Notes: a model not told the origin generated them from the sequence alone. 64,000 nt of DNA from Acidobacteriota bacterium (GCA_037443845.1 JBBINO010000003.1:12489-76488), one strand, 5' to 3'. Shown: positions 7,947 through 41,199, counted from the stretch's first letter. Made by a program: numbers and translations.

Positions 7947-7961
7947 CGCTTGAACCTCCTC

Positions 7962-9269: not shown

Positions 9270-9333
9270 CGCCAAAAGCCTCCGGTCTCTCGCCGAGCGG
9301 CCCCGAGGAGCGGCACGCGCTCCAGATGCCGCG

Positions 9334-12449: not shown

Positions 12450-12450
12450 G

Positions 12451-17132: not shown

Positions 17133-18245
17133 GTGGCGATGGCTGAAGCGCCGAAAACCTTTCCGTGCCCGCAGTGCGGCGGCCAGCTTGCGTGGAACCC
17201 CGCGCTCCAGCAGATGAAGTGCGCCTACTGCGGGTCGGACGTCGAGGTCCCCAAAGAGGGCCCGTTTCACGCCGAGGAGCACGACCTGCTGGCATTTCTA
17301 GACGAGCATCCTAAAGGCAAGGGCTACGGCGTCGAGCTAAAGACTCTTTCGTGCAAGCAGTGCGGCGCGACCGTCCAGCTTCCGCCGAGCGGGCGAAGGG
17401 ACCTCGCCTGCCCCTTCTGCGACACGCCGTACGTCGCGGAAGAGGCCTCGCCCGCGGCGACTCAGGACGTGGTCATGCCCGAATCGCTCATCCCCTTCAA
17501 GGTGCCACTCGCCCAATGCCAGGAGATGTTCAAAAAATGGATCGGCGCCGGCTGGTTCAGGCCGAACGACCTGAAGGCGATGGCGAGGCTCGACAAGATT
17601 ACCGGGCTCTACCTTCCCTTTTTCACCTTCGATGCACTGGCGAAGAGCGTGTGGAGCGCAATGGCCGGCTTTTATTACTACGTGACCGAAAGGGTCTCGG
17701 CCGTCGAGAACGGCCAGACCGTATGGCGCGACCAGCGGGTTCAGAAGGTCCGCTGGGAGCCGGCCTCCGGGACGAGGAGCGACTTCTACGACGACGTCCT
17801 GGTTCCGGCGGTCAAGGAGGAGAGGATCAACCTGATTTTGAAGGTTTATCCTTACGACACGAAGAACGGGCTGGTCGCATACGACACGCGCTACCTGGCT
17901 GGCTTCGGCATCCTGAACCCTGACATGGACCTGAAGTTCGTCTGGCGGATCGCGCAGAACAACATCGAGTCCGACCAGGTTTCCAAATGCAGCGGCGACG
18001 TCCCCGGCGACACCCAGCGCGACCTCGCCGTGAACACCAAGCTCTCGGAACAGACCTTCAAGCACCTGCTCTGCCCGCTGTGGGCGGGCTCCTTCAGGTA
18101 CAAGGGGAAGGTCTACAACTTCGTCGTCAACGGGGAGACGGGCGCGCTCTACGGCGAAAAGCCATGGAGCTGGTTCAAGATCACTCTGGCCGCCCTGGTC
18201 GCCGCGGGCGTCGCCGCCGCGGCCTACTACTTCTTCGGGAGGTGA
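17133..18245 (+). CDS. Hypothetical protein with two N-terminal zinc-ribbon pairs and a C-terminal TM anchor
   Basis: CPQCGG ... CAYCG and CKQCG ... CPFCD motifs. C-terminal hydrophobic helix ITLAALVAAGVAAAAYYFF. Strong RBS GGAGGAGG. 370 aa. No family assigned from sequence alone. Confidence 0.6.
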   Translation: MAMAEAPKTFPCPQCGGQLAWNPALQQMKCAYCGSDVEVPKEGPFHAEEHDLLAFLDEHPKGKGYGVELKTLSCKQCGATVQLPPSGRRDLACPFCDTPYVAEEASPAATQDVVMPESLIPFKVPLAQCQEMFKKWIGAGWFRPNDLKAMARLDKITGLYLPFFTFDALAKSVWSAMAGFYYYVTERVSAVENGQTVWRDQRVQKVRWEPASGTRSDFYDDVLVPAVKEERINLILKVYPYDTKNGLVAYDTRYLAGFGILNPDMDLKFVWRIAQNNIESDQVSKCSGDVPGDTQRDLAVNTKLSEQTFKHLLCPLWAGSFRYKGKVYNFVVNGETGALYGEKPWSWFKITLAALVAAGVAAAAYYFFGR

Positions 18246-19294
18246 CCACGGCGCTGGCCCTTCTTCCTGAAAAGGCGAAGCTCCTCGTCAGGCTGCCCAA
18301 CTGGCTCGGGGACGTGATTCTCTGCACCCCCGCGCTCTCGGCGCTGAAAAAGGCCCATCCCTCATGGGAGCTGACCGCGCTAGCCAAGCACGGGCTGAAA
18401 GAGGCGGTGCGGACGCTGCCGGGAATTACAAGCGTAGAGACGATAGAGGGGACGACGTTGAGGGCGGTGCGGCGCCAGGCGGGCGACCTGCGGAAAGAGG
18501 GGTTCGGCGCGGCGGTTATTTTTCCCAAGGGATTCCGGGAGGCGCTGCTGGCGAAGCTCGCCGGGATTCCGGTCCGCGCCGGGCTCGGCACCGACCACAG
18601 ATCGTTCCTGCTGACTCATCCGGTCTCCTTCACGAAGGAGGACTGGCACCTGCACCACGCGAAGCAGTTCGCGGCGGTGCTCTCGCCTTTCGGCGTGGCG
18701 CTAGAGGACGAACCGCTCTCTTTTCCTCTCGGTGATGAAGATAAAGCGCAGGCCGAAAATATTCTCTCCGAGGCGGGCCTTCTCGGCAAGCCGTTCGCCG
18801 TCTTTCATATTGGAGCGAGCAAGCCGCCCAGGGCGTGGCACGCCGGGCGGTTCGGCGAGGTTGGAAAAGCCCTTCTTGAAAGAAGAGGATTGACACCGGT
18901 TTTGGTGGGTGGCCCTGGCGACGCCGCCGTCCACGCGCGCTTTCGCGAGGCGTGCCCCGTGGCCGTTGACCTGGCCGGCAAGACGACGTTGCGCTCGATG
19001 GCCGCCGTCGTCGCGAAGGCCGCGCTCTTCGCTGGAAACGATTCCGGGCCGATGCACGTCGCCGCTGCCGTGGGGGTTCCCGTCGTTGCCGTCTTCGGCC
19101 CCGGCGCGCCGCACAAGACGGAGCCCTACCTTCCGTCAGCACGATTTCGCGTCATCTACGCCGCCCTGCCCTGTTCGCCCTGCCGCCAGGCCTTCTGGCA
19201 GGAGTGCCAGCCGTCAAAAGCCGGGAAGCCGCCGTGCCTTGAAGCGATCTCTCCGGAAGCCGTCGCCTCCGCCTGCGCGGAAATACTCTCCTGA
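18242..19294 (+). CDS. Glycosyltransferase family 9 (ADP-heptose:LPS heptosyltransferase-like)
   Basis: LPNWLGDVILCTPAL ... GNDSGPMHVAAAVGVPVVAVFGP motifs typical of WaaC/WaaF-type GT9. Start proposed at GTG 18242 (VTTALALLPEKAKLLV) inside GGGAGGTGA, overlapping the upstream stop. The ORF-track start 17987 lies inside the previous gene. Confidence 0.7.
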   Translation: MTTALALLPEKAKLLVRLPNWLGDVILCTPALSALKKAHPSWELTALAKHGLKEAVRTLPGITSVETIEGTTLRAVRRQAGDLRKEGFGAAVIFPKGFREALLAKLAGIPVRAGLGTDHRSFLLTHPVSFTKEDWHLHHAKQFAAVLSPFGVALEDEPLSFPLGDEDKAQAENILSEAGLLGKPFAVFHIGASKPPRAWHAGRFGEVGKALLERRGLTPVLVGGPGDAAVHARFREACPVAVDLAGKTTLRSMAAVVAKAALFAGNDSGPMHVAAAVGVPVVAVFGPGAPHKTEPYLPSARFRVIYAALPCSPCRQAFWQECQPSKAGKPPCLEAISPEAVASACAEILS

Positions 19295-19333
19295 AATTTC
19301 AAAGCCAGGGAGCGGTACAGTCATAAAGCGGGG

Positions 19334-20056
19334 ATGCGTCCCGCCTGCCGCGTGGTATACTTCGCTTTCTTGGAGGCGCGTTCGTTGTACGGAAATTACC
19401 AGGTGAGGCTTGGGGGGACTTGGACGAGGGCGGTGGGGGCGCTCATAGGCGTCAACGTCGCCGTTTTCCTCCTCCAGGCGTTCTCTCCGGGCCCTTTCCC
19501 TGGCTCGATTGACAGGCTTTCGGCGATGTTCGGGCTCGTTCCCGGCCATGTTTTTCCTGGCCGCGTCTACACGCTTCTCACCTACGCATTCCTCCACGGC
19601 AGCCCTATGCACCTTATTTTCAACATGCTGACGCTCTATTTTTTCGGCGGGGACTTGCAGCTCTTCATGGGGTTGAAGCGGTTCCTGATCCTCTACTTCG
19701 GGGCGGCGCTTTCGGGAGGCATCCTGGGCGCCTTCATGCCCCAAGGCAACGTGGTGATAATCGGCGCGAGCGGCGCGCTCTTCGGCATTCTGGCCGCCTA
19801 CGCGGTCTATTTTCCCCAAACGAAGGTGCTGCTCTTCTTCATAATCCCGATGAAGATCTGGGTGCTGGTCGTGGGTTTCATGGTGGTGAGCGTCTATTTC
19901 ATCGCGGTCGGGGGAGGCGGAAACATTGCGCACCTCGCCCACCTGGGCGGAGCGATTTTCGGGTTTCTCTACGTCGGCCGGTTATGGCGGCTCAAGGCGC
20001 TGGCCGGCGACCTCAAGTACAAGTGGCGCCGGCGCCGCTTCCGCAGAATCCAGTAG
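19334..20056 (+). CDS. Rhomboid-family intramembrane serine protease
   Basis: GASGALFG catalytic Ser motif, AHLGG catalytic His, six predicted TM helices. 240 aa; the exact start is uncertain. Confidence 0.75.
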   Translation: MRPACRVVYFAFLEARSLYGNYQVRLGGTWTRAVGALIGVNVAVFLLQAFSPGPFPGSIDRLSAMFGLVPGHVFPGRVYTLLTYAFLHGSPMHLIFNMLTLYFFGGDLQLFMGLKRFLILYFGAALSGGILGAFMPQGNVVIIGASGALFGILAAYAVYFPQTKVLLFFIIPMKIWVLVVGFMVVSVYFIAVGGGGNIAHLAHLGGAIFGFLYVGRLWRLKALAGDLKYKWRRRRFRRIQ

Positions 20057-20065
20057 GAAGAGAAA

Positions 20066-21412
20066 ATGAACGCCTCTGAGGCCAAGGCGCTCGCTCCGTT
20101 GGTCGAGGCGGCCATTGGAGGCCGGTTCATCAGGGAGGTGTCTTCTCCCGCCCCGTTCTTCCTCGGCCTCGTATTCTCGGCCGGGGAGACGCTCGGCTTA
20201 TGTTGCAGGCCGGATGCTTTTCACCTGGGTCTCTGTTCGTGGCCTTGGCCGGATGGCGCCGTGCCGGATATCCTTCGAGCCCGCTTGAAGAGCGCCCGGG
20301 TGGAACGGGCCGAGCCGGTGGCGGACGAGCCGGTCCTGAAACTGGTCATGGCTGGGGGCGGGGTGCTCGTCTGCGAGGGGCTGGGGCGCGCCGCCAACCT
20401 CCTTCTGCTTTCGGAAGAGGGCGCCGTCCTCTGGGCAGCGAGACGGTTCAAGGGCGAGTTCAGGACGGGCGCCTGCGGCGAGATTTGGGCGCCGCCTCCG
20501 CCCAGGCAAGGCGTGACCGCGACATCGCCCGAGGGCGATCCGGAGCGCTATTTTCGCGAAACGGCCTCTGAGGCAATCAGGGCCGCGCTCGTTGACGCCG
20601 GACGGCGGCGAGCGATGCAGGCCATCCAAAAAAGAACGCTGGCGCTTCAAAGGCGCCTGAAGGCCGTGGAAGCGGATCGCTTCGAGGGCCGTTCGTGGGC
20701 CGGGCTCGAAGCGGCCGGGAAAGCCCTTTTGTCCCAAAAAGATCTCGGGCGAAGGGGACTTTCCAAGGCCGAAGTGATGGACTACGAAGCCTCGCCCCCT
20801 AAAACCGTTACCGTTGAGCTCGACCCCTCCATGTCGCTTAAAGAAAACGCCGCGCGATTCTTTAGGCTTGCGAAGCGCGGCAAGGCCAGAATCGAGAAAA
20901 CCGCGGCGATCTTGGCCAGCATCGCGAGGGACGAGGCGGCGCTTGCCCTGGAGCGCGAAGCAGTGGCCGCCGAGAGCGACCTTTCCCGCCTCTTTCCCAA
21001 GCCAGCCAAGGCAACGTCCCGCGAGAAGGCGGCGGGCGGAGGCAAGCTGCCCAAGGGGGTTACGAAGCTCGATCTGCCGCAAGGGTTCACCGGATACGCC
21101 GGCAAGACCGCGCAGGCGAACGACTTCGTGACTTTCAGGATTGGGCGTGGCGAGGATTTCTGGTTCCACGCGGCCGATTACCCCGGCTGCCACGTCGTCG
21201 TGCGCAACCCGTCCCGGCTCGAAGAGTGCCCGTACGGTGTTGCCCAGGCTGCGGCTCTTTTCGCCGCCCGCCATAGCAAGGCGCCGCAGGAAGGCCGCGT
21301 GGCGGTCGTTTTCGCCCGCTGCAAGAACCTGAGGCGCGTGCCGCGCTGCGTGGGCATGGTCACCATGGCGCGCTCAAGGACCCTTGACGTTGAACTCAAA
21401 GGGCGCGGGTGA
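20066..21412 (+). CDS. NFACT-family RNA-binding protein (RqcH / FbpA-like, ribosome-associated quality control homolog)
   Basis: N-terminal NFACT-N-like region, central coiled coil, C-terminal NFACT-R/DUF814 signature DFWFHAADYPGCHVVV. 448 aa. Confidence 0.7.
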   Translation: MNASEAKALAPLVEAAIGGRFIREVSSPAPFFLGLVFSAGETLGLCCRPDAFHLGLCSWPWPDGAVPDILRARLKSARVERAEPVADEPVLKLVMAGGGVLVCEGLGRAANLLLLSEEGAVLWAARRFKGEFRTGACGEIWAPPPPRQGVTATSPEGDPERYFRETASEAIRAALVDAGRRRAMQAIQKRTLALQRRLKAVEADRFEGRSWAGLEAAGKALLSQKDLGRRGLSKAEVMDYEASPPKTVTVELDPSMSLKENAARFFRLAKRGKARIEKTAAILASIARDEAALALEREAVAAESDLSRLFPKPAKATSREKAAGGGKLPKGVTKLDLPQGFTGYAGKTAQANDFVTFRIGRGEDFWFHAADYPGCHVVVRNPSRLEECPYGVAQAAALFAARHSKAPQEGRVAVVFARCKNLRRVPRCVGMVTMARSRTLDVELKGRG

Positions 21413-21444
21413 TATCCTTTAGGGCGAAGGTTGAGGAGGTGGCG

Positions 21445-22368
21445 ATGATCCTTCGTTGGCCGAAATGTCTCTTGACGGTCCTGCTCCTCTGTCTGGCTTC
21501 GTTCAGCGCGAGCGCCTCGGGCGTTTTCGTCGTGCTGCGAAAGGGCGTGCAGGCTTACGACGACGCGAAGAACGGCTTCATCCAGATGGCCTACGCCAAG
21601 CAGCTCCGCGGCTTCAACCCGGCCGCCGTGGAACTTGACGGGACGGACAAGGATGACGCCGCGCTCGCGGCTTTGAAGGGGCAGGCTCCGGACCTGATTT
21701 TTGCCGTCGGCTCCTATGCGGCCAAGAAGGCAAGGCAGGCCATGCCGGACGTGGAGATCGTCTACGCCATGGTCTACTATCCGGAGGTTGACGGCCTGAC
21801 GCACGACGCCAAGATGACCGGCGTCGCCTCCCTTGGCGCGCCAAAGCTGCTTGCGCAAGTGATAAAGTCCTTGGGCAAGGGGAAGAGCATCATCGTCTTG
21901 AACCAGGCTGCCATTTCGGCTTCGGCGCTCGAAATCGCCTCGACCCTTGGCGGCGAGGGGCTTTCCGCCTCGACCTCGACCGTGCAGGGGACCGACGACC
22001 TCCCGAAGGTTCTGGACGGGATTCGGGGCCAGGCCCAGTACGTTCTTCTTCTGCCCGATCCGCTGACCCAGTCCCCGGAGTCGCTCCGCTTCATCATCTC
22101 GAAATGCGTTGACGGTGGGATGATACCGCTCGCCTATTCGGAAGGGCTGGTCTCCAACGGGGCGTTTGCCGCCGCCTATATTCCTCCCGAATCGGCGGGG
22201 TCGAAGGCGGCCGAAATCGCCTCCGAAATCCTCTCCTCGGGCAAGGCGCCGGACACGAAAGTGGTTCCGGTCACCGACGCGGCGACGGCCGTGAACAAAG
22301 GCACGGCGAGAGCCTTGAGGATCAACAAGCTGCCCAAGGAGCTCGCCTCGGGGACGATCTATGAGTGA
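21445..22368 (+). CDS. Periplasmic substrate-binding protein (ABC-type uncharacterised transport system periplasmic component, COG2984-like)
   Basis: Signal peptide MILRWPKCLLTVLLLCLASFSASASG, with RBS GAGGAGG 7 nt upstream of ATG 21445. Type-I periplasmic-binding-like fold implied by alternating hydrophobic/Gly-rich segments. Its stop overlaps the MCP start by 8 nt. Confidence 0.6.
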   Translation: MILRWPKCLLTVLLLCLASFSASASGVFVVLRKGVQAYDDAKNGFIQMAYAKQLRGFNPAAVELDGTDKDDAALAALKGQAPDLIFAVGSYAAKKARQAMPDVEIVYAMVYYPEVDGLTHDAKMTGVASLGAPKLLAQVIKSLGKGKSIIVLNQAAISASALEIASTLGGEGLSASTSTVQGTDDLPKVLDGIRGQAQYVLLLPDPLTQSPESLRFIISKCVDGGMIPLAYSEGLVSNGAFAAAYIPPESAGSKAAEIASEILSSGKAPDTKVVPVTDAATAVNKGTARALRINKLPKELASGTIYE

Positions 22369-24520
22369 GCGCTTCAATGTCCGCGGACTTTTCGAGAAGT
22401 TCGTGGGGGGGAGCGTACGCGGGCAGATACTGTCGGTCCTCGTGGTGTTGCTTTTCCTGGGTTCGCTGGCCCAGGCGCTCCTTTTTTACGCCAAGTCGCG
22501 GTCCGTCGCGCTGGGACAGATCCAGGAGTCGTACAAGAGCCTCGGCGTCATGGTAGGGAACCTTTCCACTTACGACTTGCAGTTCAACAAGCAGGGGCTG
22601 AAGAACACTCTCGACGGCATGCTGAAGGCCGATCCCAACATCCTATGGGCGGAGTTTACCGACGCCTCCGAAAAGGTCCTTCAGGCGGACGGCCCGCTCG
22701 GCAAGGCGCCTTACGAGCCATTCTCCGCGCTTCCGGCTGCCGTCGCCGTCTCCTCGCAGAAGACCGACAAGGGAGCGGCGCTTCTGATCAGGGTCCCGAT
22801 ACGCAAAGCCGCCGAGGCGGCGACGCCGGTTGGAGAATTTGGCTTTGAAACCCAGGGCTCGGCACCATCCGGCCCGAAAGACCTCGGCGAAATGAGAATG
22901 GTCGTCGCCCTTTCGGGCCTTTCGGCGCTGCGCCGCGGCTACCTGATTTTCGGCTTGCTCGCGATCCTGGCGACCATGGCGCTGGGCACCTTCATTTCCC
23001 TGATGGTGACCAATTACCTGACCGCCCCGATATACAGCCTCACGACGCTGGCGAAGAGGATCGCCGGGGGCGACCTTACCGCGGCCGCGGAGGCGGAGCG
23101 GCGAAGAGACGAGCTCGGGAGGCTTGCCCAGAGTTTCAGGGAGATGTCAGGCCAGCTCGCCTCGATGATTAGGGACATACGGGGAGCCTTTCAAAAGGTG
23201 GAGGCGGACACCCAATCGGTTCGCGGGCAGCTCGACAGCAACCTCGAACAGGCGAAGGCCCAGGACGCGGCCGCCAACCGCGTTTCCGCTTCCCTCAGGA
23301 CGATTCAGAATTCCGTCGTGGAAGTTTCCCGGCAGATGGAGGGGCTCTCACAGCTCGCCGAGGAGGTAAGCTCCTCCGTCCTCGAGATGATCACCAGCAT
23401 CGAGGAGATCGCGTCGAGCGCCGACGGGCTGACCGACCAGGTGAACAAGGCCGCCTCCACGCTGTCACAGAACGTCGCCGCCCAGCGCCAGATAAGCGCG
23501 TCGGCAATCACGCTAAACAGGTTCGTCGAAGAGACTTCGGCGGCCATGACCGAAATGAGCGCGAGCATCAGGCAGATCGAGCAGAACGCCCTTCGCAGCA
23601 GGGAGGCGGCGGAGAACGCCTCCTCGGAGGCGAAATCGGGCGTGGTCGCGGTCGAGCGCTCTGCCCAAAGCGTGAAGGAGTTGCAGGGTTCCTTCGGCAA
23701 AACCGTGGAGGCGATGAAGCTTCTTGGCCAGCGGAGCGAAGAGGTGGGCAACATACTCTCGGTCATTGACGAGGTGATGGAGCAGACCCACCTGCTCGCC
23801 CTGAACGCCGCGATCATCGCGGCGCAGGCCGGCGAGCACGGGAAGTCCTTCGCGGTGGTGGCCTCCGAAATCCGGGGGCTGGCCGAGAAGACTTCCGTTT
23901 CGACGAGGGAGATCGCCTCGCTGGTGTCGAGCGTTCAGGCGGAGGTCCACAAGGCGGTGGAGAGCGTCACCTCGCAAACGGCCGTCCTCGATGAGAGCGT
24001 CGCCGCGTCGGGCGCAACGGCCGCTTCGTTCAAGCGGATCGAGCAATCGGTCGCCCCGGCCGTCCAGATGGTTCAGGAAATAGCCCGCGCCACCGTCGAG
24101 CAGAGCCGTTCGGCCGACGGCGTTTCAAAATCGCTCGACCAGGTCCGCGACCTCGCCCACCAGGTTGGCAAGGCGACCAGCGAGCAGTCCCAGAGCAGCG
24201 GCCAGATTCTCGATGCTGTCAACCGGATAAGGAGCCTTTCCGAGGAGGTCAAGCGGGCCACCAAGGAACAGAGCACCGGCTCGGCGATGATCAGGGAGGC
24301 GATGGAGCGGCTGACCTCCTCCGTCGCCGAAGTACTCTCCCAGACCGCCGCGCAGATGGAGGCCGCCAAGGGCGGCGCGAAGTCGGTGAAGGAATTCGGC
24401 GAGGCCAGCCAGGCCGGAGTGGCTATAGTCCACGAAGCGCGCTCTCAAATGGAGGCCCTTTCCACGCGAGCCGAGGAGGCCGGGCGCGAGCTGGCCAGGT
24501 TCCGCACGGAGGGCGGCTGA
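22361..24520 (+). CDS. Methyl-accepting chemotaxis protein (periplasmic sensor domain, HAMP, long MCP signalling domain)
   Basis: Two TM segments flanking an about 170-aa periplasmic domain. HAMP (GDLTAAAEAERRRDELGRLAQSFREM). Highly conserved MCP signalling hairpin LLALNAAIIAAQAGEHGKSFAVVASEIRGLAEKT. 719 aa. Confidence 0.85.
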   Translation: MSERFNVRGLFEKFVGGSVRGQILSVLVVLLFLGSLAQALLFYAKSRSVALGQIQESYKSLGVMVGNLSTYDLQFNKQGLKNTLDGMLKADPNILWAEFTDASEKVLQADGPLGKAPYEPFSALPAAVAVSSQKTDKGAALLIRVPIRKAAEAATPVGEFGFETQGSAPSGPKDLGEMRMVVALSGLSALRRGYLIFGLLAILATMALGTFISLMVTNYLTAPIYSLTTLAKRIAGGDLTAAAEAERRRDELGRLAQSFREMSGQLASMIRDIRGAFQKVEADTQSVRGQLDSNLEQAKAQDAAANRVSASLRTIQNSVVEVSRQMEGLSQLAEEVSSSVLEMITSIEEIASSADGLTDQVNKAASTLSQNVAAQRQISASAITLNRFVEETSAAMTEMSASIRQIEQNALRSREAAENASSEAKSGVVAVERSAQSVKELQGSFGKTVEAMKLLGQRSEEVGNILSVIDEVMEQTHLLALNAAIIAAQAGEHGKSFAVVASEIRGLAEKTSVSTREIASLVSSVQAEVHKAVESVTSQTAVLDESVAASGATAASFKRIEQSVAPAVQMVQEIARATVEQSRSADGVSKSLDQVRDLAHQVGKATSEQSQSSGQILDAVNRIRSLSEEVKRATKEQSTGSAMIREAMERLTSSVAEVLSQTAAQMEAAKGGAKSVKEFGEASQAGVAIVHEARSQMEALSTRAEEAGRELARFRTEGG

Positions 24521-24526
24521 GGCGCC

Positions 24527-25045
24527 ATGGAGAGCCTTTTCGCCGCGAGAAAACCGCAAGCCGCGCCCGACGCCGAGACCCTTTACCTCGGCTTTGTCGT
24601 CGCTGGGCAGGACTACGCCCTTCCCATCGCCTGCGTGAGAGAAATTCTCAGGGTTCCGAAAATACATGCCTTCCCAAAGGTCCCGGAGTTCGTGAAGGGA
24701 GTCATTGACCTCAGGGGGACAATCCTTCCAGTCGTGGACCTAAAGGAGAGGATCGGCCTCGGAACGGTTGACAAGGCAAGGGGCCGGGTGATCGTCCTCG
24801 TCCCCAACCATCAACCGATGGGGCTTCTAGTGGACAAGGCGGTCGAAGTTTTCCCCTGTTCGGAAGCGCTTCTCAAGCCGAAGCCGGAGTTGCTGCAGAA
24901 GGCCCCGGTTCCCTTTCTCGCCGGCATAATTTCAAGGGAGGGGACCCTTTACTACGCGCTCGACCCGAAGTTGATCCTTACGCCTCGCGAGTTCGAGATT
25001 CTGGAAACGCACCGATGGGTCGTGCCTGATGAAAAGCAGAAGTGA
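24527..25045 (+). CDS. cheW: Chemotaxis coupling protein CheW
   Basis: CheW-like domain: LYLGFVVAGQDYALPIACVREIL ... GVIDLRG ... PVVDL ... VIVL ... GLLVDKV-like. 172 aa. Confidence 0.85.
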   Translation: MESLFAARKPQAAPDAETLYLGFVVAGQDYALPIACVREILRVPKIHAFPKVPEFVKGVIDLRGTILPVVDLKERIGLGTVDKARGRVIVLVPNHQPMGLLVDKAVEVFPCSEALLKPKPELLQKAPVPFLAGIISREGTLYYALDPKLILTPREFEILETHRWVVPDEKQK

Positions 25046-25676
25046 CCGCCTTTCAAAACTGGAAGGCGGGTTGACGGACCCTTTCCTCCCGCCCGGCGAG
25101 GCGTCAAAAAGGCTGGAGGAGTGGTGGAACGAAGGGGTGGTAGCCGCGGCCGCGCCAATGGCGCTCTGGGCCGCGCTGCAAGAGGCTCAGCCTAAGCTTC
25201 GCCGAATCGGGCTCGTGGCTTTTCCATCAGGCGGGCAGACGAACACGGGAAAGCGCGTCGAGCTTCTCGAATGCGTGCGCATGGGCCTTCACGGCGCGGA
25301 GGTCGTGCTCAATGGGGGCTGCCTGGCCGAGGGCCTCTGGGGGGAAGTGGAAAAGGAGATGCGTGATCTTCTGAAGACGGCGCCCGAGATAGAATTGCGG
25401 TTCGCCGTAGAGTGGGGCAGGCTTGGAGATGAAGCCAGGAGGCGGCTCGTTCGTCTCCTCAAGGACAACCAGCCCAAAGTGTTACGCGCCGCCACCGGCG
25501 TCTACGGCCCGGCCTTGACGTTCCAGGAAGTTGCCTCACTGCGCGCCATGCTTCCGAAAGGGGTGCGCCTCAAGCTCCCCGCCGGAAAAGACGGGCCGCC
25601 GCCGGCAAAGTACCTTGACGCCGGCGCGGACCTGGTGGAAAGCGAAACCCCCTTGTCGTGCGGTGAGCGGCCATGA
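25029..25676 (+). CDS. DeoC/DERA-family aldolase-like protein (divergent), co-transcribed with the chemosensory genes
   Basis: Segments resemble E. coli DeoC blocks: IGLVAFPSGG vs IATVTNFPHG, GAEVVLNGG vs GADEVDVV, KVLRAATGV vs IKTSTGK, GVRLKLPAGKD vs GFKPAGGVRT. Overlaps cheW by 17 nt and the next gene by 4 nt. Family assignment tentative. Confidence 0.4.
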   Translation: MKSRSDRLSKLEGGLTDPFLPPGEASKRLEEWWNEGVVAAAAPMALWAALQEAQPKLRRIGLVAFPSGGQTNTGKRVELLECVRMGLHGAEVVLNGGCLAEGLWGEVEKEMRDLLKTAPEIELRFAVEWGRLGDEARRRLVRLLKDNQPKVLRAATGVYGPALTFQEVASLRAMLPKGVRLKLPAGKDGPPPAKYLDAGADLVESETPLSCGERP

Positions 25677-26716
25677 CCGCCCGCAGGGCGTTGCTTTGGA
25701 TTCTCAGCCTGGCGCTGGCGGGGGTCTTTCTCTATTTCTTTCTTCGAGACGCCAACCTCGGGCGCGTCCTTCACGACGCCAAGCAGGCGGCGCTGCCTCT
25801 TCTCATGGCCGCGGTGGCTTTCGAGATATTTTCGATAACTCTGAGGGCCTATCGCTGGGGGGTCCTTTTGCGCCCGGCCGCTGGACGCAAGATCAGGATG
25901 GCGCCTCTTCTCAAGGCGACCAACGTGTCGTTCGCGATCACCGGCGTCATGCCCGGGAGGGTCGGCGAAATAGCCAAGCCTCTTCTTCTGGCCAGGTGGG
26001 AAGGGCTGTCGTTCACCGCGCTGGCCGGCTCGGTCGTGCTGGAAAGGGTCCTAGACCTTTTCGCCATCGTCGCGCTTTGGGCACTCTACGTCTTCTTCGG
26101 CGGCCACGACCTGAGCCCGGAGGCCCAACACGTGGCCGGGGACGTCAACAAGGTCTCGTACGTCCTGCTGGCCGTCATGTTCGCGGCGGGCCTCTTCGCC
26201 TGGTGGCTGGCTCCGAGGAGGAAGCTGCTGGAGCGTTGGAGCCGGCGCCACTACGGCCTTGGGCGCCACCCCGTTTTCAACAAGCTGGCGGCTCTCTTTT
26301 TCAGGTTCGCGGAGGGGCTGGATAGCTTCAAGAAGAAGCGGGTCATCCTCTACCTCCTGTTTCTTTCCCTCGTAATCTGGGGGGGCGTCGCGGCGGCGGC
26401 GTGGTGTTTCCTGGAGGCGCTCCACCTCCAACTGCCATGGGAGGCCTCGGTCCTCCTTCTCGTCTTTATATCGCTCGGCGCCGCGGTGCCGACCCCGGGC
26501 GGCATAGGCGGCGTCCACAAAGCCATCGCGTGGGCGCTCACGGCCTTCTACGGCGTGGACGAAGACAACGCCGTGGCGGCCGGCTTCATAGGCCACGCCG
26601 TCCTTTTCTTCCCTTCCATTCTTTGGGGCATCGGCTATGTTCTTCTGGGCCGCGTCCATTGGGGCGAAATAAGGGAAGCCGCCAAGGAAAGCGAAACGAG
26701 CGGGCCCGAAGGTTGA
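25673..26716 (+). CDS. Flippase-like domain membrane protein (UPF0104 / lysylphosphatidylglycerol-synthase TM-region family)
   Basis: Eight or so TM helices. Conserved TPGGIGGVH motif near the C-terminal third, characteristic of the MprF-TM/UPF0104 family. 347 aa. Confidence 0.65.
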   Translation: MTARRALLWILSLALAGVFLYFFLRDANLGRVLHDAKQAALPLLMAAVAFEIFSITLRAYRWGVLLRPAAGRKIRMAPLLKATNVSFAITGVMPGRVGEIAKPLLLARWEGLSFTALAGSVVLERVLDLFAIVALWALYVFFGGHDLSPEAQHVAGDVNKVSYVLLAVMFAAGLFAWWLAPRRKLLERWSRRHYGLGRHPVFNKLAALFFRFAEGLDSFKKKRVILYLLFLSLVIWGGVAAAAWCFLEALHLQLPWEASVLLLVFISLGAAVPTPGGIGGVHKAIAWALTAFYGVDEDNAVAAGFIGHAVLFFPSILWGIGYVLLGRVHWGEIREAAKESETSGPEG

Positions 26717-26759
26717 TTGCGGCCCGGGCCGTGAGATAAACTCAGAGAGGAGGTTCGCC

Positions 26760-27230
26760 GTGCGCTGCCCTTTTTGCGGACATCTCGAAGACAAGGTGGT
26801 TGACTCCCGCGAGGTAGCCTCCGGCGACACCATAAGGCGGCGGAGGGAATGCCTCTCGTGCCACAAGCGGTTCACCTCGTACGAACACATCGAGACCATA
26901 CCCTACAGGGTGGTCAAGAAGGACGGCCGCAGAGAGAAGTTCGATAGGGGCAAGCTGGTCAACGGCGTCCTCAAGGCTTGCGAGAAGAGGCCGGTCTCGA
27001 TGGCGGCGGTCGAGGCGATCGTGGACGAGGTGGAAAGCCTTCTTCACAAGGCGGCCGATGGCGAGATTTCCACCAGCGACATCGGCAACCACGTCATGGA
27101 GCGGCTGAAGGACCTCGACAAGGTGGCCTTCGTCCGCTTCGCCAGCGTTTACCGCCAGTTCGGCGACATCAGCGAATTTCTCGAAGAGGTCAAGAGGCTG
27201 GCCGATCCCCACAGGCAGGGGGGCGGCTGA
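26760..27230 (+). CDS. nrdR: Transcriptional repressor NrdR
   Basis: MRCPFCGHLEDKVVDSR ... CLSCHKRFTSYE zinc ribbon plus ATP-cone. 156 aa. Confidence 0.9.
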   Translation: MRCPFCGHLEDKVVDSREVASGDTIRRRRECLSCHKRFTSYEHIETIPYRVVKKDGRREKFDRGKLVNGVLKACEKRPVSMAAVEAIVDEVESLLHKAADGEISTSDIGNHVMERLKDLDKVAFVRFASVYRQFGDISEFLEEVKRLADPHRQGGG

Positions 27231-27676
27231 TGCGCCAGATACTCTCCTCCTTCGTCGAGCTCATGCGCCTTCAGTCCGAGATGAACAAGCTCTTCGAGGC
27301 GCTTCAGGTGATTCACGAGCACGAGGGCGAGCCTGAAGTGGCGAGCGCTCCGCCGTACGACATTCTGGAGACGAAAGACGAGGTCGTCGTGGAGATGGAC
27401 TTGCCTGGAATCGAGCCATCCACCCTGAAAGTCACGGCGAGAGGCGACGTCGTCAGCGTGCGCGCCGAGCGGCGCAGCACGTCGCGGGAAGGGCTCAAGG
27501 CCTATCACCTGATGGAGAGAGACCGCGGCCCGGTCACTCGCAGGCTGAGGGTCGAGGGCGCCATCAACACGCACAAGGGCGCGGCCCTCTACAGCCTCGG
27601 GGTGCTCACCATCGCGTTCCCGCGCGTGCCGGATCGCCGCGGCTCCGAAGTGGCTCTGCCGGTGAAGGTCTCATAA
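27230..27676 (+). CDS. Hsp20/alpha-crystallin family small heat-shock protein
   Basis: ATG overlaps the nrdR TGA (TGATG). Alpha-crystallin core YDILETKDEVVVEMDLPGI ... LKVT ... VSVRAE ... G.L.I..P. 148 aa. Confidence 0.8.
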   Translation: MRQILSSFVELMRLQSEMNKLFEALQVIHEHEGEPEVASAPPYDILETKDEVVVEMDLPGIEPSTLKVTARGDVVSVRAERRSTSREGLKAYHLMERDRGPVTRRLRVEGAINTHKGAALYSLGVLTIAFPRVPDRRGSEVALPVKVS

Positions 27677-27678
27677 GT

Positions 27679-30027
27679 ATGCGCGGGGATGAGCCGCTTC
27701 CGTTGCCCATCCCGAAGCGACTTCCCGTATGGGAGACCGGCGACCGAGTGGTTTTCCCTTACGCCATCGAGACGCTCTCCATGCCGCTTCCAGGGGCGAA
27801 GCCGCTCCTGGAGCAGAGCCACAAGCACGGGGACCTCGTCGTTCTCCTCCCGTCTCCCGTCAAGCAGCGCCGCCCCAGTTACACGGCCGTCGCCGCGCTG
27901 TTGCTGCGCATGGGGCCGGGCGGCCCGGGAGAAGGGCTCCTGGTGGTGCAGGGAGTGGTTCGCCTTCGCGCCGAGCTGGAAAAGCGCCACGGCGCGGTCC
28001 GGTTCGCCAGCGTCGAGCCTCTCAGGGACCGGCTGGAGCCGGACGCCAAGCTGGCCGCGGCGGCGCTAAGGCGCAGCCTGCTTTCGAGGCTCGACCAGCT
28101 CGCTGAAACTTCGGGCGGACTCGGCTCGGACGTTCGCCAGTTCCTCTCCACGATCGAAGACCCAGGCAGGTTTTCCGACGCGGCCGCGGCCAATCTTTCG
28201 CTCCCGCACTCCTTGGCGCGAGACCTGCTGGAGTGCCGGGACCCGGTGGAAAGGATGAACCGTCTTCTGACGCATCTCTCCGCCGAGGTCGAAATAGCCG
28301 GCATGCAGGAGAAGCTGGCGAGACAGGCGCGCGACGAGATGGACAAGCGCCAGCGGGAGTATTTCCTGAGGCAGCAACTCGAGGCGATTCAGGCCGAGCT
28401 TCAGGGCGGGCAGCCCGAGACGGAGTCGGATTCGTACTACAAGAAAAAGCTAGCCGGCCTGGCGCTCCCGGCCGAGGTCACTACCCCGCTCGAAAAGGAG
28501 ATCGCGAAGCTTTCGCGCTTCGGCCCATTTTCGGAGGAGGCCAGCTCCGTGCGGGCTTACCTCGACCTGGTCCTCGACCTTCCGTGGAACTCGTCCACGA
28601 AGGACATCCTCGACGTGAAGACGGCCCGGCGTGAACTTGACGCCAACCACCACGGCCTCAAGAAAGCAAAGGAGAGGATACTCGAACACATAGCGGTCTC
28701 GGCGATAAAAGGCTCGAACTCCGGGACCATCTTCTGTTTCGCTGGCCCGCCTGGCGTGGGAAAGACGAGCCTCGGCCGGGCGATAGCCCGCGCGCTTGGG
28801 CGCAAGTTCGTCAGAATGTCCCTTGGCGGCGTCCGTGACGAGGCGGAGATACGCGGCCACAGGCGCACCTACATCGGCGCGATGCCAGGAAGGATCATCC
28901 AGGGCATCAAGAATTCCCAGAGCCGCAATCCGGTCTTCGTCCTCGACGAAGTTGACAAAATGGGCGATGACTGGCGCGGCGACCCGTCGTCGGCCTTGCT
29001 CGAAGCGCTTGACCCCGAGCAGAACCGGGAGTTCGTGGACCACTACCTCGGTTTTCCCTTCGACCTGTCTCAGGTAATGTTCGTTGCGACGGCCAACACG
29101 CTCGAAGGCGTCCATCCCGCGCTGGTTGACCGGATGGAGATACTCGAGCTTCCCGGCTACACCGACGAGGAGAAGCTGGCGATAGCCAAGCGCCACCTCC
29201 TGCCGAGGCAGCTTGCCTCCACCGGCCTTCACGACAGGAAGGTCGTTCTGGGCGAAGAGACGATCCTGTTTCTGATCCGCAGGTTCACCCGCGAGGCCGG
29301 GGTCAGAAACCTGGAACGCGCGCTCGAAACGGTGCTGAGAAAGATAGCAAGAAAGGTCGCCGCCGGGGCGAAGGGACCTTTCGAGGTCAATCCTTCGGAC
29401 CTGGAGCGGATGCTGGGGCCCGCCCCGTTTTTTCACGAGGACCGCGTCAGCGAGGACAGGGTGGGGCTCGCGGCCGGCCTTGCCTGGACGGAGGCTGGCG
29501 GCGAGGTGCTCTACGTTGAGGCCGCGGCGCTTGAGGGGAACGGGGCGCTCACCCTCACCGGCCAGTTGGGCGACGTCATGAAGGAATCAATCCAGGCCGC
29601 ATTTACCTACATAAAGGAACGCGCCGCCGGGTATGGCCTCAAGCCCAAGGAACTCGCCAAGAAGGACATCCACGTCCACCTGCCGCAGGGGGCGATACCT
29701 AAGGACGGCCCCTCCGCGGGCATAACCATGGCGGTGGCTCTTCTTTCGGCCCTGTCCGGCAAGCCGGTGGTCCACACGACGGCATTCACCGGGGAGATCA
29801 CGCTCAGGGGGGACGTGTTGATGGTCGGCGGACTTCGGGAGAAGCTCCTGGCCGCGTGCCGGGCGCGGTTCAAGAGGGTCGTCCTGCCGGAGGCGAACCG
29901 CCACGAACAGCGCGACTTCCCAAAGGCCGCCATCGAGCAACTCAAACTGGTCTACGTAAAAACCATGGATGAGGTATTCCGCGAGGCGATGCGGCCCGCC
30001 GCGCCGGCTTCGAGGCCCAAGAGATAA
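27679..30027 (+). CDS. lon: ATP-dependent protease Lon
   Basis: Lon N-domain (LPVWETGDRVVFPY). AAA+ Walker A GPPGVGKTS, Walker B VFVLDEVDK. Proteolytic domain with PKDGPSAGITMAVALLSALSG (catalytic Ser) and the downstream Lys. 782 aa. Confidence 0.9.
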   Translation: MRGDEPLPLPIPKRLPVWETGDRVVFPYAIETLSMPLPGAKPLLEQSHKHGDLVVLLPSPVKQRRPSYTAVAALLLRMGPGGPGEGLLVVQGVVRLRAELEKRHGAVRFASVEPLRDRLEPDAKLAAAALRRSLLSRLDQLAETSGGLGSDVRQFLSTIEDPGRFSDAAAANLSLPHSLARDLLECRDPVERMNRLLTHLSAEVEIAGMQEKLARQARDEMDKRQREYFLRQQLEAIQAELQGGQPETESDSYYKKKLAGLALPAEVTTPLEKEIAKLSRFGPFSEEASSVRAYLDLVLDLPWNSSTKDILDVKTARRELDANHHGLKKAKERILEHIAVSAIKGSNSGTIFCFAGPPGVGKTSLGRAIARALGRKFVRMSLGGVRDEAEIRGHRRTYIGAMPGRIIQGIKNSQSRNPVFVLDEVDKMGDDWRGDPSSALLEALDPEQNREFVDHYLGFPFDLSQVMFVATANTLEGVHPALVDRMEILELPGYTDEEKLAIAKRHLLPRQLASTGLHDRKVVLGEETILFLIRRFTREAGVRNLERALETVLRKIARKVAAGAKGPFEVNPSDLERMLGPAPFFHEDRVSEDRVGLAAGLAWTEAGGEVLYVEAAALEGNGALTLTGQLGDVMKESIQAAFTYIKERAAGYGLKPKELAKKDIHVHLPQGAIPKDGPSAGITMAVALLSALSGKPVVHTTAFTGEITLRGDVLMVGGLREKLLAACRARFKRVVLPEANRHEQRDFPKAAIEQLKLVYVKTMDEVFREAMRPAAPASRPKR

Positions 30028-30148
30028 GGCATTCACCGGCGCGCGGCAGAAAAGGCCGAGGCTCGGCAACGGAATCGCAGCCACCCGATCCCGTCTCGCG
30101 GTGTTTTGCTATAATTCGGTTCGGCCAGTTTGGCATGGAGGGCAAGGC

Positions 30149-33100
30149 GTGGAGTTTCGTCTTTGCGCAAGTTGCCGGCGGATCGAGGGCGCTGGGAGCC
30201 TCTGCCCCTCGTGCGGAGGACGCCTGGAGCTGGCCGAGCCGCGCGCTTTCGTGGGCCAGGCGTTCGGCAAGTACTCGCTGGAGTGCGTGCTCGGCGCTGG
30301 CGGCATGGGGGTCGTCTTCGGCGCGCGCCACGCGACCCTTGGGCGGCTCGTCGCCTTGAAAATGATCCTTCCCGGCGCGTCCGGCGAGGCCTTTCAGAAG
30401 CGGTTTCTTCAAGAGGCGAGGGTCCTCGCCGAGCTCAAGCACCCCAACATAGTCGAGGTCTATGACTTTGACGTGAGCGATTGGGGGCCGCCCTTCATGG
30501 TGATGGAGTTCCTGGAGGGAAGGAGCCTCAGGGAGATTCTTGACCGGTGCAAGCCGCCTCTGCCCCTTTCAGGCTATGCTTCGCTGGTGTCCGAAGCCGG
30601 CGCGGCGCTCGCGTACGCTCACAAGCGCGGGGTCGTTCACAGGGACTTGAAGCCCGAGAACATCTTCGTCGCGGTTTATGACGGCGTGCCGGTCTGCAAG
30701 GTGCTCGACTTCGGCCTGGCCAAGTTCTTGCGCGCCTCCAATCCGGATGACCGCCTGACTGCCACGGGCGCGGTGATGGGAACTCCGCACTACCTCGCGC
30801 CGGAGCAAATCCTCTGCCGCCCCGTTTCGCCGCAAAGCGACCAGTACGCACTGGCGCTCGTCGTGGCGGAGCTCGCCGCCGGTAAGGCGGTCCGCGCGGG
30901 GAAATCATTCAGCGAAATTTGCGCGACGGAGGTCAGCCGCCCGCTCAGGGACGACTGGGCGCCTGAACTGCTTCCTGGCGGGCCGCTGCGGGACGCGCTC
31001 CGCAAGGCCACCGACCCGGACCCTTCGCGCCGCTTTCAGGACGTCTCTGCCTTCGTCGCGGCGCTCGGCCTGTCGCGATCAAGCGGGGCGCTTGAGAAGC
31101 TGGCTTCGGCGGCACGATGTGAATCATCCGTTCCGACGATGGATTTGACGCCGCCACCAGCGCTCGTCTCGCCCCCGCCTCGTTCATCGCCGAAGCCCGT
31201 GACTCGGCCGGCGGCGCCTCCGCCGCTTTCAGGAGCGCCCGGCGGCCAAGCCGGCGAGCACGCGGCGCCAAGAAGGGCATGGGCGGCGGCGGCGCTAGTG
31301 GCCCTTCTTGGCGTAGCCGCCGCGCTCGTGCTTCTTAAGTGGCCGCCCCAGTGGCGATTCGGCAAAGAACGGACACCCGCCCCATACGCGCTTTTGGAAA
31401 AGATCGCCTCGGTCCCGGTGCCTGCCGACGCCACCAACATCATCACCCGGAGCCAGGACAAGAAGGTCAGCATAGTCGGCGCTCCAGACGGGGTCTATCT
31501 CGTCAGCGAAGAAGGCGATCCTCCGGCTAGGATACCGCTTGGCGAAAACGAGGAGGTAATAGCCGGAGGCGAGGACGGGGTCGCGCTGCTTCGAGTGAAT
31601 GACACGATCGTCCTGCGGAGTTTCCTCAAGGATGACGATCATTTGATCGCAAAGGGCATACCTAAGGGCGGCTCCTACTGGATCTCGCCCAGGTGGGATT
31701 TCCTGGCCGCCGGAAACAGCGGCTCGGTGGAGATTTGCAGGATCGAAGGGCAGGCATGCAAGGCGTGCGGCAAGATATCCGTTTCAAAAGAAAGCCCGCG
31801 CTGGATCCTGCTCGGCGAGCGCCACGCCGCCGAAAGCTCTGGCGACGAGATTTCCGTCTATTCCCTGCCGGAGTGCAGGCTGTTGTGGAAAAAGAAGATG
31901 GAGTCCGGGCTGAGCGCGGGAGCTATCTACGAGCCGGGAGGACTGCTTGCCGCCGGAGGCTGGACCAGCAAGGTCTATATCCTCGACCTTAACACCGGCG
32001 CTCAGCGGGCGCTCTTTTCCAGGGAGGGCCACACAAACGGCCTCTCCTTCCTCCCAGGCGGGGAGCGGCTGGCCGTGGCTGGAGAAGGCGGCCTGCTCCT
32101 TCTCCCCCTCGATGGCAAAAGCAAGGAAGCGGCATTCGGAGGGGCGGAAGATTCCCTGCAAGAGGTGGATTTCAAGGGCGGAGTGTTGGCCGCGCTGGAC
32201 GAGGACCATCACAGGCTGGACCTTCTTGGCTACCACGGCATGCCGGAGCTTAGCTCTATCGCCGTTGGCAAGCGGGAACTCTGGGCCATGGCGGCCGATC
32301 CCATGGGGCGGTGGATCTACGCGGGAGGCCCCGAAGGCTCCGTAAACAGAATTTCGCCCAAAGAGGGAAAGGCCGAGTCATTCCCCTTGCACACGCAAGG
32401 CGTCACTGGGATCGTCGCCTCGCAAAACCACGTCGCATCTTCTTCCGACGACCGCACGATCGCCGTTTGGGCGGTGCCCCGGATGAACGTCCTTTGGCGC
32501 AGCAAGGCGCATGACTACCTTATCAACGGGCTCTGCCTGAGCAAGGCGCCCATGCTCTGGTCCTCGTCATCGGATGGCGATATTAAGGCGTGGAACTGGC
32601 CACAGCTCGACGAAAAGGAAGAAATCTCGACGACGAAGCTCTTTGGAAAACCGATTCCTCTGGCCGCGATTTGGGCCTCATCTGACGGGAAGCGGGTGCT
32701 TTGCGGCACATGGACGGGCAAGCTCCTCGACCTCGCGAAGGGCGATGGGCCGGATTGGAGGGCGAAGCTCTGGGACACTGAGAGCCAATGCCTCTACAGC
32801 GCGGCGGAGGTTCCTGGCGTGGACGCCGTGGTGTTCGGCCTTTTGGGAGGGCGGCCCGGCGTTTTTGTTTACGACCTGAGGGAGGGGCGCTTCTTCGAGG
32901 CGGAGGCCCTCGGGGCCGAGCTTGGGAACGCCTACGTCACCTCGGCGGGCAAGGACGGGGAGGTCTGCGTGGCTGGTTCGGGGGTTCTTCTCTTGTATCG
33001 CTTCGACAGGGATCCCGGCGGTCGCCTGAGGTACTCGGTGTGCTGTAAAGCGGATTCGGCGCTTCGCTCCGTTGGGTCGGCCACCGTCCTGCCGGATGCT

Positions 33101-33193
33101 GGCGTGGTGGCCGCCGGAAGCGTTGGCAGAATTTTTCTCTATCCCCTGGCCTCCCTTCGCCTTGTCCCTCCGGAACGGCGAATGGCTCCATGA
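30149..33193 (+). CDS. Transmembrane Ser/Thr protein kinase with N-terminal zinc ribbon and large C-terminal extracytoplasmic beta-propeller (WD40/PQQ-like) domain
   Basis: Zn ribbon CASCRRIEGAGSLCPSCGG. Hanks kinase motifs LGAGGMGVVF, VALK, HRDLKPEN, DFG, APE. Pro-rich linker, TM helix AAAALVALLGVAAALVLL, then about 560 aa of repeated beta-strand blocks. Start set at GTG 30149, with GGAGGG 6 nt upstream, because the longest ORF (29969) overlaps lon. Confidence 0.75.
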   Translation: MEFRLCASCRRIEGAGSLCPSCGGRLELAEPRAFVGQAFGKYSLECVLGAGGMGVVFGARHATLGRLVALKMILPGASGEAFQKRFLQEARVLAELKHPNIVEVYDFDVSDWGPPFMVMEFLEGRSLREILDRCKPPLPLSGYASLVSEAGAALAYAHKRGVVHRDLKPENIFVAVYDGVPVCKVLDFGLAKFLRASNPDDRLTATGAVMGTPHYLAPEQILCRPVSPQSDQYALALVVAELAAGKAVRAGKSFSEICATEVSRPLRDDWAPELLPGGPLRDALRKATDPDPSRRFQDVSAFVAALGLSRSSGALEKLASAARCESSVPTMDLTPPPALVSPPPRSSPKPVTRPAAPPPLSGAPGGQAGEHAAPRRAWAAAALVALLGVAAALVLLKWPPQWRFGKERTPAPYALLEKIASVPVPADATNIITRSQDKKVSIVGAPDGVYLVSEEGDPPARIPLGENEEVIAGGEDGVALLRVNDTIVLRSFLKDDDHLIAKGIPKGGSYWISPRWDFLAAGNSGSVEICRIEGQACKACGKISVSKESPRWILLGERHAAESSGDEISVYSLPECRLLWKKKMESGLSAGAIYEPGGLLAAGGWTSKVYILDLNTGAQRALFSREGHTNGLSFLPGGERLAVAGEGGLLLLPLDGKSKEAAFGGAEDSLQEVDFKGGVLAALDEDHHRLDLLGYHGMPELSSIAVGKRELWAMAADPMGRWIYAGGPEGSVNRISPKEGKAESFPLHTQGVTGIVASQNHVASSSDDRTIAVWAVPRMNVLWRSKAHDYLINGLCLSKAPMLWSSSSDGDIKAWNWPQLDEKEEISTTKLFGKPIPLAAIWASSDGKRVLCGTWTGKLLDLAKGDGPDWRAKLWDTESQCLYSAAEVPGVDAVVFGLLGGRPGVFVYDLREGRFFEAEALGAELGNAYVTSAGKDGEVCVAGSGVLLLYRFDRDPGGRLRYSVCCKADSALRSVGSATVLPDAGVVAAGSVGRIFLYPLASLRLVPPERRMAP

Positions 33194-39418: not shown

Positions 39419-39487
39419 AACGTTCTTCGCCAGCGCGCGGCTTGCATCGGCGCGCGGGTTCTGTCATCTTATGGGCGTGGAGGCGCG

Positions 39488-41107: not shown

Positions 41108-41199
41108 AGAGCGCGGCGCCTGGAGCCCCATGTCTTGTCTCTGGCGTTGGCAACGCAAGGGTGGCGCCTGAATCAGCAACCGTCAGTAATCAGGACATT

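Follow-up and report, generated by a model that had tools for sequence, protein, structure and literature searches.

The MBP-Tar, PstS-CtpL, LuxP-LuxQ and TorT-TorS systems each combine a secreted solute-binding protein (SBP) with a membrane-spanning receptor that carries a periplasmic domain. Characterised SBP genes of chemoreceptors usually lie beside transporter genes, whereas kinase-linked SBP genes, such as those of the adjacent LuxP-LuxQ and TorT-TorS pairs, lie beside the signalling gene (PMC8050422). Genes for methyl-accepting chemotaxis proteins (MCPs) and CheW are also found beside non-motility genes, as in the Myxococcus Dif and Pseudomonas Wsp clusters, which encode their own CheA, CheY or other output protein and usually CheB and CheR. 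Here we describe a locus from an Acidobacteriota bacterium (GCA_037443845.1, JBBINO010000003.1:12489-76488; this whole stretch of 64,000 nucleotides (nt) is hereafter the window) in which genes for an SBP, an MCP, CheW, a protein resembling deoxyribose-phosphate aldolase (DERA) and a UPF0104 membrane protein follow one another at 21445-26716. The reading we favour, to which we would give an even chance, is that these genes form two adjoining pieces of a ten-gene block carried by one clade: an orphan SBP-MCP-CheW input module, and a non-catalytic DERA relic next to the UPF0104 gene. The host clade consists of uncultured, probably anaerobic Acidobacteriota.

All five open reading frames (ORFs) lie on the + strand. 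They encode an orphan periplasmic SBP of the PF04392/COG2984 type with an N-terminal signal peptide (307 residues, 21445-22368, with an alternative GTG start at 21409), a transmembrane MCP (719 residues, 22361-24520), a CheW coupling protein (172 residues, 24527-25045), a putative DERA-fold pseudoenzyme (215 residues, 25029-25676) and a UPF0104/LPG_synthase_TM membrane protein that resembles the flippase domain of MprF (347 residues, 25673-26716). The SBP and MCP genes overlap by 8 nt, 6 nt separate the MCP gene from cheW, and the two junctions that follow are overlaps of 17 nt and, at an ATGA, 4 nt; public gene calls record identical sequences for these proteins. An initial annotation of this locus had listed these five frames with the same families and junctions, and every one of them stands exactly as given. 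Profile searches placed four of the five proteins above curated thresholds, the exception being the DERA-like product of the fourth gene.

The SBP matches PF04392 (ABC_sub_bind) with 41 bits (E = 1.4e-10; cut-off 25.9), its closest PDB entry is 6hni (E = 1.5e-6), and its N-terminus is hydrophobic over residues 1-32 in the manner of a signal peptide. Ligands bound in PF04392 structures are L-Trp, L-Tyr and L-Phe (review table, PMC10443332). No ATP-binding cassette (ABC) permease or ATPase gene occurs among the roughly 46 main ORFs of the window, and we therefore rejected a local ABC transporter as the system that the SBP serves. As expected of an SBP-dependent receptor, then, a secreted SBP-fold protein is encoded together with a receptor, and among those ORFs it has no cognate transporter. 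The predicted signal peptide, the lack of a transporter gene among the main ORFs of the window and the recurrence of the SBP-MCP overlap, which is 8 nt in about 15 of the 19 related loci with both genes (the others have a 4-nt gap, taking the nearest start codon), together make indirect ligand sensing through the SBP plausible. In having its SBP gene beside the receptor gene, the window follows the kinase-type arrangement described above, which is unusual among characterised chemoreceptor-linked SBPs; it departs from the kinase-type pairs in that its receptor is an MCP, a class whose characterised SBPs are usually encoded with transporters. The SBP of the window pair is a PF04392 member. If our reading is right, the locus presents a clean case of an orphan PF04392 SBP gene overlapping a chemoreceptor gene, and is a candidate for work on dedicated SBP-MCP pairs.

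The MCP matches the HAMP and MCPsignal families (PF00672, PF00015; E = 6e-40) and has the topology of a transmembrane receptor, with a first transmembrane segment at about residues 22-44, a periplasmic domain of about 150 residues, a second transmembrane segment at about 195-217, HAMP at 216-266 and the hairpin tip motif near residue 490. Its cytoplasmic part runs for about 224 residues from HAMP to the tip and about 229 back, which corresponds to about 64 heptads as judged from length alone, without class-specific models. The periplasmic domain is well conserved, with 29 invariant columns in the alignment of related loci, and found no Pfam match at E <= 10 and no PDB profile match; a single-sequence AlphaFold2 model of it had a predicted local distance difference test (pLDDT) score of 49 and was unusable. 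No methylation site of the kind used in CheR/CheB adaptation was found by the strict pattern [ASTG][ASTG]xx[EQ][EQ]xx[ASTG][ASTG], the sole pattern used. The CheW protein is an unambiguous match to PF01584 (E = 3.7e-32, 111 bits against a cut-off of 23.5).

None of the main ORFs in the 64-kb window encodes CheA, CheY, CheB, CheR or a flagellar protein, and CheA and CheY were likewise not found in the annotated flanks of the related loci L001, L002, L004 and L019. The window shares with the Dif and Wsp clusters the placement of MCP and CheW beside non-motility genes, but it has none of the output or adaptation genes that those clusters carry. With no CheA or CheY at the locus, what is encoded is a receptor module dependent on a kinase from another part of the genome, and the description of the locus as a sensory pathway in the initial annotation does not hold. 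In the mechanism we propose, the secreted SBP would capture a periplasmic ligand and present it to the MCP periplasmic domain by docking there, and CheW would couple the long MCP to a CheA presumably encoded at a distance in the genome. The literature on 64H-class receptors and on PF04392 sensors yielded nothing that describes this arrangement.

The second piece turns on the identity of the DERA-like protein. It found no Pfam match even at E <= 10, and it scored 36.3 bits (E = 3.7e-9) against the TIGR00126 deoC model, far under the curated cut-off of 117.3; by sequence it nevertheless matches DERAs in the PDB at E = 4e-7. An AlphaFold2 model built on nine homologues has eight beta/alpha units (pLDDT 88.3, predicted template modelling (pTM) score 0.87), and in a Foldseek search of the PDB its top 40 or more matches were all DERAs, with template modelling scores of 0.81-0.86 and root-mean-square deviations of about 2.1-2.9 Å over about 210 residues. 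The DeoC-like assignment of the initial annotation was thereby upheld at the level of fold, a DERA-type (beta/alpha)8 barrel. The gene is also real: its GC pattern by codon position resembles that of its neighbours, its dN/dS of 0.10-0.25 in unsaturated pairs is the highest in the block there yet far below 1, and the fold is predicted with confidence, so we rejected a mis-framed artefact.

Catalysis by DERA depends on a lysine on beta6, within a KTSTG motif (K167 in Escherichia coli), which forms the Schiff base, with D102, an aspartate, and K201, the second lysine, acting as the proton relay. At the corresponding positions the window protein has E91 for the aspartate, R124 for a lysine on beta5, R153 for the Schiff-base lysine and K182 for the second lysine. 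In the HMMER alignment to Bacillus halodurans BH1352 (PDB 6d33), Arg153 falls on Lys155 and Lys182 on Lys184, the residue named in a "K184L mutant" PDB entry. Whether the catalytic lysine pair is retained can thus be answered for each half: the second lysine is kept in the window protein as K182, and the Schiff-base lysine is replaced by Arg153. Close homologues share the loss: the Schiff-base position is R in seven and V in two of nine, with lysine in none, and across 16 family representatives it is R, V, I or M, with K in two. The aspartate position varies among E, T, S, A, L and V, and the second-lysine position among K, M, A, L, H, E, I, T, V and G, so that K182, although kept in the window, is not kept family-wide. 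The next-best matches, which are ordinary DERAs, carry D, K, K and K together with the KTSTG and KA(A/S)GG motifs almost without exception. The DERA-like protein resembles the described enzymes (PDB 1mzh, 6d33 and 1j2w) in its barrel, in detectable sequence homology and in the FPxG and K..E motifs after beta3, which it keeps. It differs from them in lacking the Schiff-base lysine, in having lost the KTSTG and KA(A/S)GG phosphate-binding motifs, in leaving the aspartate and other lysine positions unconserved, and in being encoded at a fixed position in a non-nucleoside locus.

Judged from these residues, the DERA-like protein cannot be a class I aldolase, and the earlier description of it as an aldolase-like enzyme is contradicted by the arginine at the Schiff-base position and by the drift of all catalytic positions within the family. 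Because every catalytic site drifts freely while the protein as a whole is under purifying selection, we conclude that it is, as far as sequence can tell, a non-catalytic DERA-fold pseudoenzyme maintained by that selection. The invariant or nearly invariant columns of the family (K75, R76, E78, E81, R84, E110, E120, R142 and R172) fall on predicted outer helices and one connecting loop, away from the barrel mouth, and in the model this conserved outer face suggests a protein-binding surface. Most likely, then, the relic would be kept as a non-catalytic scaffold or adaptor that acts through its outer helical face and not through the barrel pocket. We found no description of the family in profile libraries or in the literature on DERA pseudoenzymes. 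One member, P0003, bears the Joint Genome Institute (JGI) name "deoxyribose-phosphate aldolase", which is probably a mis-annotation since its catalytic residues are missing. If our reading is right, the DeoC label needs correcting, as reconstructions from metagenome-assembled genomes (MAGs) could otherwise credit these organisms with a deoC activity that they may lack, and the DERA fold has given rise to a small, clade-restricted pseudoenzyme family that has no Pfam model.

The neighbouring UPF0104 protein matches PF03706 (LPG_synthase_TM) over the full model (positions 1-302 of 302; E = 6e-45, 154 bits against a cut-off of 33.4) and TIGR00374 with 74.6 bits (cut-off 43.2), and its hydrophobicity indicates about 7-8 transmembrane segments. 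Full-length coverage of the family model and multiple transmembrane segments are features that it shares with MprF, YbhN and HpnL. The PF03706 match spans residues 9-319 of 347 and leaves no second domain; we therefore rejected MprF itself as the identity of the protein, as it lacks the C-terminal aminoacyl-phosphatidylglycerol synthase domain. It also differs from MprF in its company, since its neighbour in outgroup genomes is nrdR and not a lipid enzyme.

A cytoplasmic enzyme often accompanies UPF0104 domains, for example the synthase domain of MprF or GT2 proteins, and several UPF0104 homologues are named GT2 family proteins by JGI. This raises the possibility that the DERA-like protein is still an enzyme, one using chemistry other than a Schiff base, whose pocket, rich in Arg and Glu, acts on a phosphorylated or anionic substrate and makes or modifies the cargo of the UPF0104 protein. 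The window protein and its close relatives do have such a pocket, formed by E91, R124, R153 and K182. The overlap of 4 nt between the DERA-like and UPF0104 genes is also conserved. The pocket varies within the family, however, with P0106-P0117 carrying T/S/A/L/V, V/I and M/A/L/E at these positions, which would not be expected if the family had an active site in common. Also gone are the glycine motifs for phosphate binding, and UPF0104 homologues in outgroups and in two loci of the clade itself (L019 and L020, below) do without a DERA-like protein. We consider such an enzyme very unlikely.

How the two pieces came to be neighbours is best seen from the distribution of their genes. An HMMER scan of 1.84 billion cluster representatives returned 14-16 family representatives of the DERA-like protein at E <= 1e-23, set off by a sharp break from ordinary DERAs, which begin at E = 2e-21; at 50% identity the family amounts to about 16 clusters among these 1.84 billion representatives, and among 5.8 billion proteins a word-indexed search recovered no more than nine clusters. 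A genome scan placed seven loci, all of them in Acidobacteriota MAGs, and a metagenome scan gave fourteen more; every member that could be placed lies between cheW and the UPF0104 gene in an Acidobacteriota MAG. Judged as far as each contig reaches, all of the roughly 30 related loci have the same ten-gene order, rhomboid-NFACT-SBP-MCP-CheW-DERA-like-UPF0104-NrdR-Hsp20-Lon, with identities to the window of 52-89% for the MCP, 69-94% for NrdR and 35-64% for the DERA-like protein. Conservation of gene order beyond the strain, raised as a check in the initial annotation, is thus amply confirmed. The order extends equally over the rhomboid, NFACT, NrdR, Hsp20 and Lon genes, however, and so singles out no five-gene unit. 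With housekeeping genes inside the conserved block, order alone cannot tie the last two genes to the sensory genes, a caution that applies generally: conserved order within one clade is no proof of functional linkage when housekeeping flanks are conserved to the same degree.

The UPF0104 gene has an older association. In the UPF0104 search, orthologues of at least 49% identity were followed by a step down to at most 37%, and in four outgroup loci with homologues 33-36% identical the UPF0104 gene is the immediate 5′ neighbour of nrdR (L018, from a contig of 2.8 Mb, 8001-9596; L021, 5450-7013; L037, 6001-7508; L038, 6001-7478). In gene calls the two are separated by a 4-nt overlap in L037 and L038, a 1-nt gap in L021 and a 126-nt gap in L018, and all four loci have a divergent SAICAR synthase gene upstream. 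None of the four has MCP, CheW or DERA-like genes, so the adjacency of UPF0104 to nrdR is older than its adjacency to the chemosensory genes; the SBP-MCP-CheW-DERA-like genes stand upstream of the UPF0104-nrdR pair only in the clade of the window.

In one sublineage of that clade, the DERA-like gene has been lost. Loci L019 and L020 lack it and keep MCP-CheW-UPF0104-NrdR-Hsp20-Lon, with a UPF0104 protein 49% identical to that of the window and 16 nt between CheW and UPF0104. In a neighbour-joining tree of UPF0104 and NrdR (outgroup-rooted, no bootstrap) these two loci nest inside the group that bears the DERA-like gene, which implies a secondary loss, and the loss in turn implies that both neighbours can do without the DERA-like gene. 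The MCP gene of L019 is split at its 3′ end into a truncated gene and a 44-residue ORF, with a frame change near residue 636 (L019 1-1820 compared with L020 3-236); the near-identical L020 reads through, and the split may reflect an assembly error or early decay.

Taken together, these comparisons indicate that the adjacency of the two pieces is a case of clade-wide synteny, which is in itself no evidence of a shared pathway. The suggestion that the last two genes supply the output or the signal of the sensory genes had been drawn from linkage alone, and rhomboid, NFACT, NrdR, Hsp20 and Lon are linked to the sensory genes with equal specificity.

The transcriptional layout likewise gives the five genes no clear limits. 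They lie in an unbroken run of + strand genes that spans 17133-33193 and has no gap of 50 nt or more, and the delimited operon of the initial annotation gives way to a continuous run without marked boundaries. Consensus scans found terminator-like sites in no excess (23 against 18.5 +/- 4.4 in shuffled sequence), promoter-like sites likewise in no excess, and neither kind of site in any intergenic gap of the conserved block. The only Rfam match is a tRNA-Met 30 kb off, so we rejected the presence of a riboswitch or another RNA element at this site. Upstream, the limit of the five genes is unmarked, with only 32 nt between the NFACT and SBP genes, or, from the GTG start, an overlap of 4 nt. Downstream, the gap between UPF0104 and nrdR is 43 nt in the window and mostly 25-129 nt elsewhere (406 nt in L017); it is the widest of the block across loci, so that a transcription unit ending at UPF0104 is possible. 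The nrdR-hsp20-lon junctions measure -4 to +10 nt in every locus except L019. Inside the block, MCP and CheW are 0-8 nt apart in most loci, the spacing from CheW to the DERA-like gene is -17, -4, +1 to +10 or +58 to +59 nt, and the DERA-like and UPF0104 genes overlap by 4 nt in 22 of the 24 loci showing both, the exceptions being L009 and L011 with a 66-nt gap. The five ORFs are probably co-transcribed.

We also compared evolutionary rates by partial Mantel (mirror-tree) covariation across 13 taxa, in a ten-test and a fifteen-test run. The positive control, CheW with the MCP cytoplasmic domain, was significant (r = 0.48, p = 0.0008), indicating that the method detects something real. Apart from the control, the only signal to survive correction was that between the SBP and the UPF0104 protein with the other genes controlled (r = 0.45-0.49, p = 0.003-0.008), which did so in the ten-test run and not in the fifteen-test run; it could arise from shared exposure to the envelope or from something more specific. 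Beyond the control, we treat these nominal results as leads that are not decisive.

The tight tandem, with overlaps conserved across about 30 loci, the position of the block's widest gap after UPF0104, and the covariation of SBP and UPF0104 rates are what might be expected if the five genes formed one integrated sensory system in which the DERA-like and flippase-like proteins serve as output or signal source, the state of the receptor controlling, for example, translocation of a lipid or polymer; the lack of a nearby CheA leaves room for such a non-canonical output. This account has to contend with an identical synteny that takes in rhomboid, NFACT, NrdR, Hsp20 and Lon, with a UPF0104-nrdR adjacency that is older and exists without chemosensory genes, with the dispensability of the DERA-like gene in L019 and L020, and with the loss of the aldolase active site. 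We know of no MCP or CheW output that bypasses CheA, and we regard an integrated system as unlikely.

Several observations nonetheless weigh against separating the locus into two pieces. The junctions on either side of the DERA-like gene, with CheW and with UPF0104, are as tight as those inside the sensory module, and the five genes could be transcribed as one unit and serve one function. Members of the DERA-like family are confined to this setting, and their adjacency to cheW is broken only by loss. Nominal rate covariation connects the DERA-like protein to CheW (r = 0.32-0.38, p = 0.03-0.045) and to the MCP cytoplasmic domain (r = 0.34, p = 0.03), a hint that a tie to the receptor array may be real, and its covariation with UPF0104, its partner in the second piece, has an r of about 0. 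Within the proposed input module, the SBP and the MCP periplasmic domain show no significant covariation (r = 0.10).

Much of this would fit a pseudoenzyme that serves as an accessory of the chemoreceptor array, an adaptor or modulator on CheW or on the MCP bundle, with UPF0104 as an unrelated neighbour. The gene always follows cheW directly, the two overlapping by 17 or 4 nt in roughly one locus out of two and standing 1-10 nt apart in most others, the nominal covariation points to CheW and the MCP and away from UPF0104, and the conserved residues lie on outer helices, not in the pocket. The covariation fails multiple-test correction, however; one subclade has the 58-59-nt gap between CheW and the DERA-like gene, while most loci preserve the 4-nt overlap of the DERA-like gene with UPF0104; and L019 and L020 dropped the DERA-like gene and retained MCP-CheW. 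To our knowledge, no array component has a TIM barrel. An array accessory also seems to us improbable.

The hints as to the partner of the relic conflict, in that translational coupling points to UPF0104 and weak rate covariation to CheW and the MCP cytoplasmic domain. The boldest reading is a lineage-specific adaptor physically bridging the chemoreceptor-CheW array to the UPF0104 (MprF-type) lipid translocator, a suggestion that we regard as a long shot; if true, a ligand sensed by the SBP would change the distribution of membrane lipids directly, as a CheA-independent output of an MCP. Under the preferred reading of two adjoining pieces, the close gene spacing and the weakly covarying rates of the DERA-like protein, CheW and the MCP still leave room for a hypothetical direct functional tie between the pieces.

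The flanks of the conserved block were assigned by Pfam and, on the downstream side, also by related-locus gene calls and tblastn synteny; all lie on the + strand. Upstream are a rhomboid protease (19334-20056) and an NFACT/RqcH-like protein (20066-21412), 9 nt apart, and downstream, over 26760-30027, are NrdR (26760-27230), Hsp20 (about 27233-27676) and Lon protease (27679-30027). Synteny breaks 5′ of the rhomboid gene, where the window and L011 have genes for a zinc-ribbon protein and a GT9 glycosyltransferase, L001 and L002 a sigma-factor operon and L004 an ACPS gene. The zinc-ribbon-like protein (17133-18245, +; 370 residues) has two N-terminal CxxC pairs and a hydrophobic C-terminal tail, belongs to no family above threshold, and is conserved in L011 at 84% identity with an adjacent GT9 heptosyltransferase gene. 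Directly 3′ of lon, the window encodes a Ser/Thr protein kinase extended by a long C-terminal part (29969-33193, +; 1074 residues as the longest ORF), whose orthologues at the equivalent position in L001 and L002 have Pkinase and WD40-type beta-propeller domains.

The remainder of the window holds housekeeping and hydrogenase genes. An [FeFe]-hydrogenase cluster on the - strand (5244-12515) comprises a HydF maturase (5244-6515), a radical-SAM/BATS maturase of the HydG/HydE type (6549-7946), a HydA-like large subunit with ferredoxin domains (9334-11253) and a NuoF-like flavoprotein (11250-12515), and points to an anaerobic, possibly electron-bifurcating lifestyle. Three further large ORFs found no Pfam match at E <= 1e-5 (854-4156, -, 1100 residues; 39464-41179, -, 571 residues; 4349-5236, +, 295 residues). 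A tricorn-protease-like protein of 1097 residues (44264-47557, -) carries PD40, Tricorn_C1, Tricorn PDZ and S41 domains, the make-up of an archaeal-type protease.

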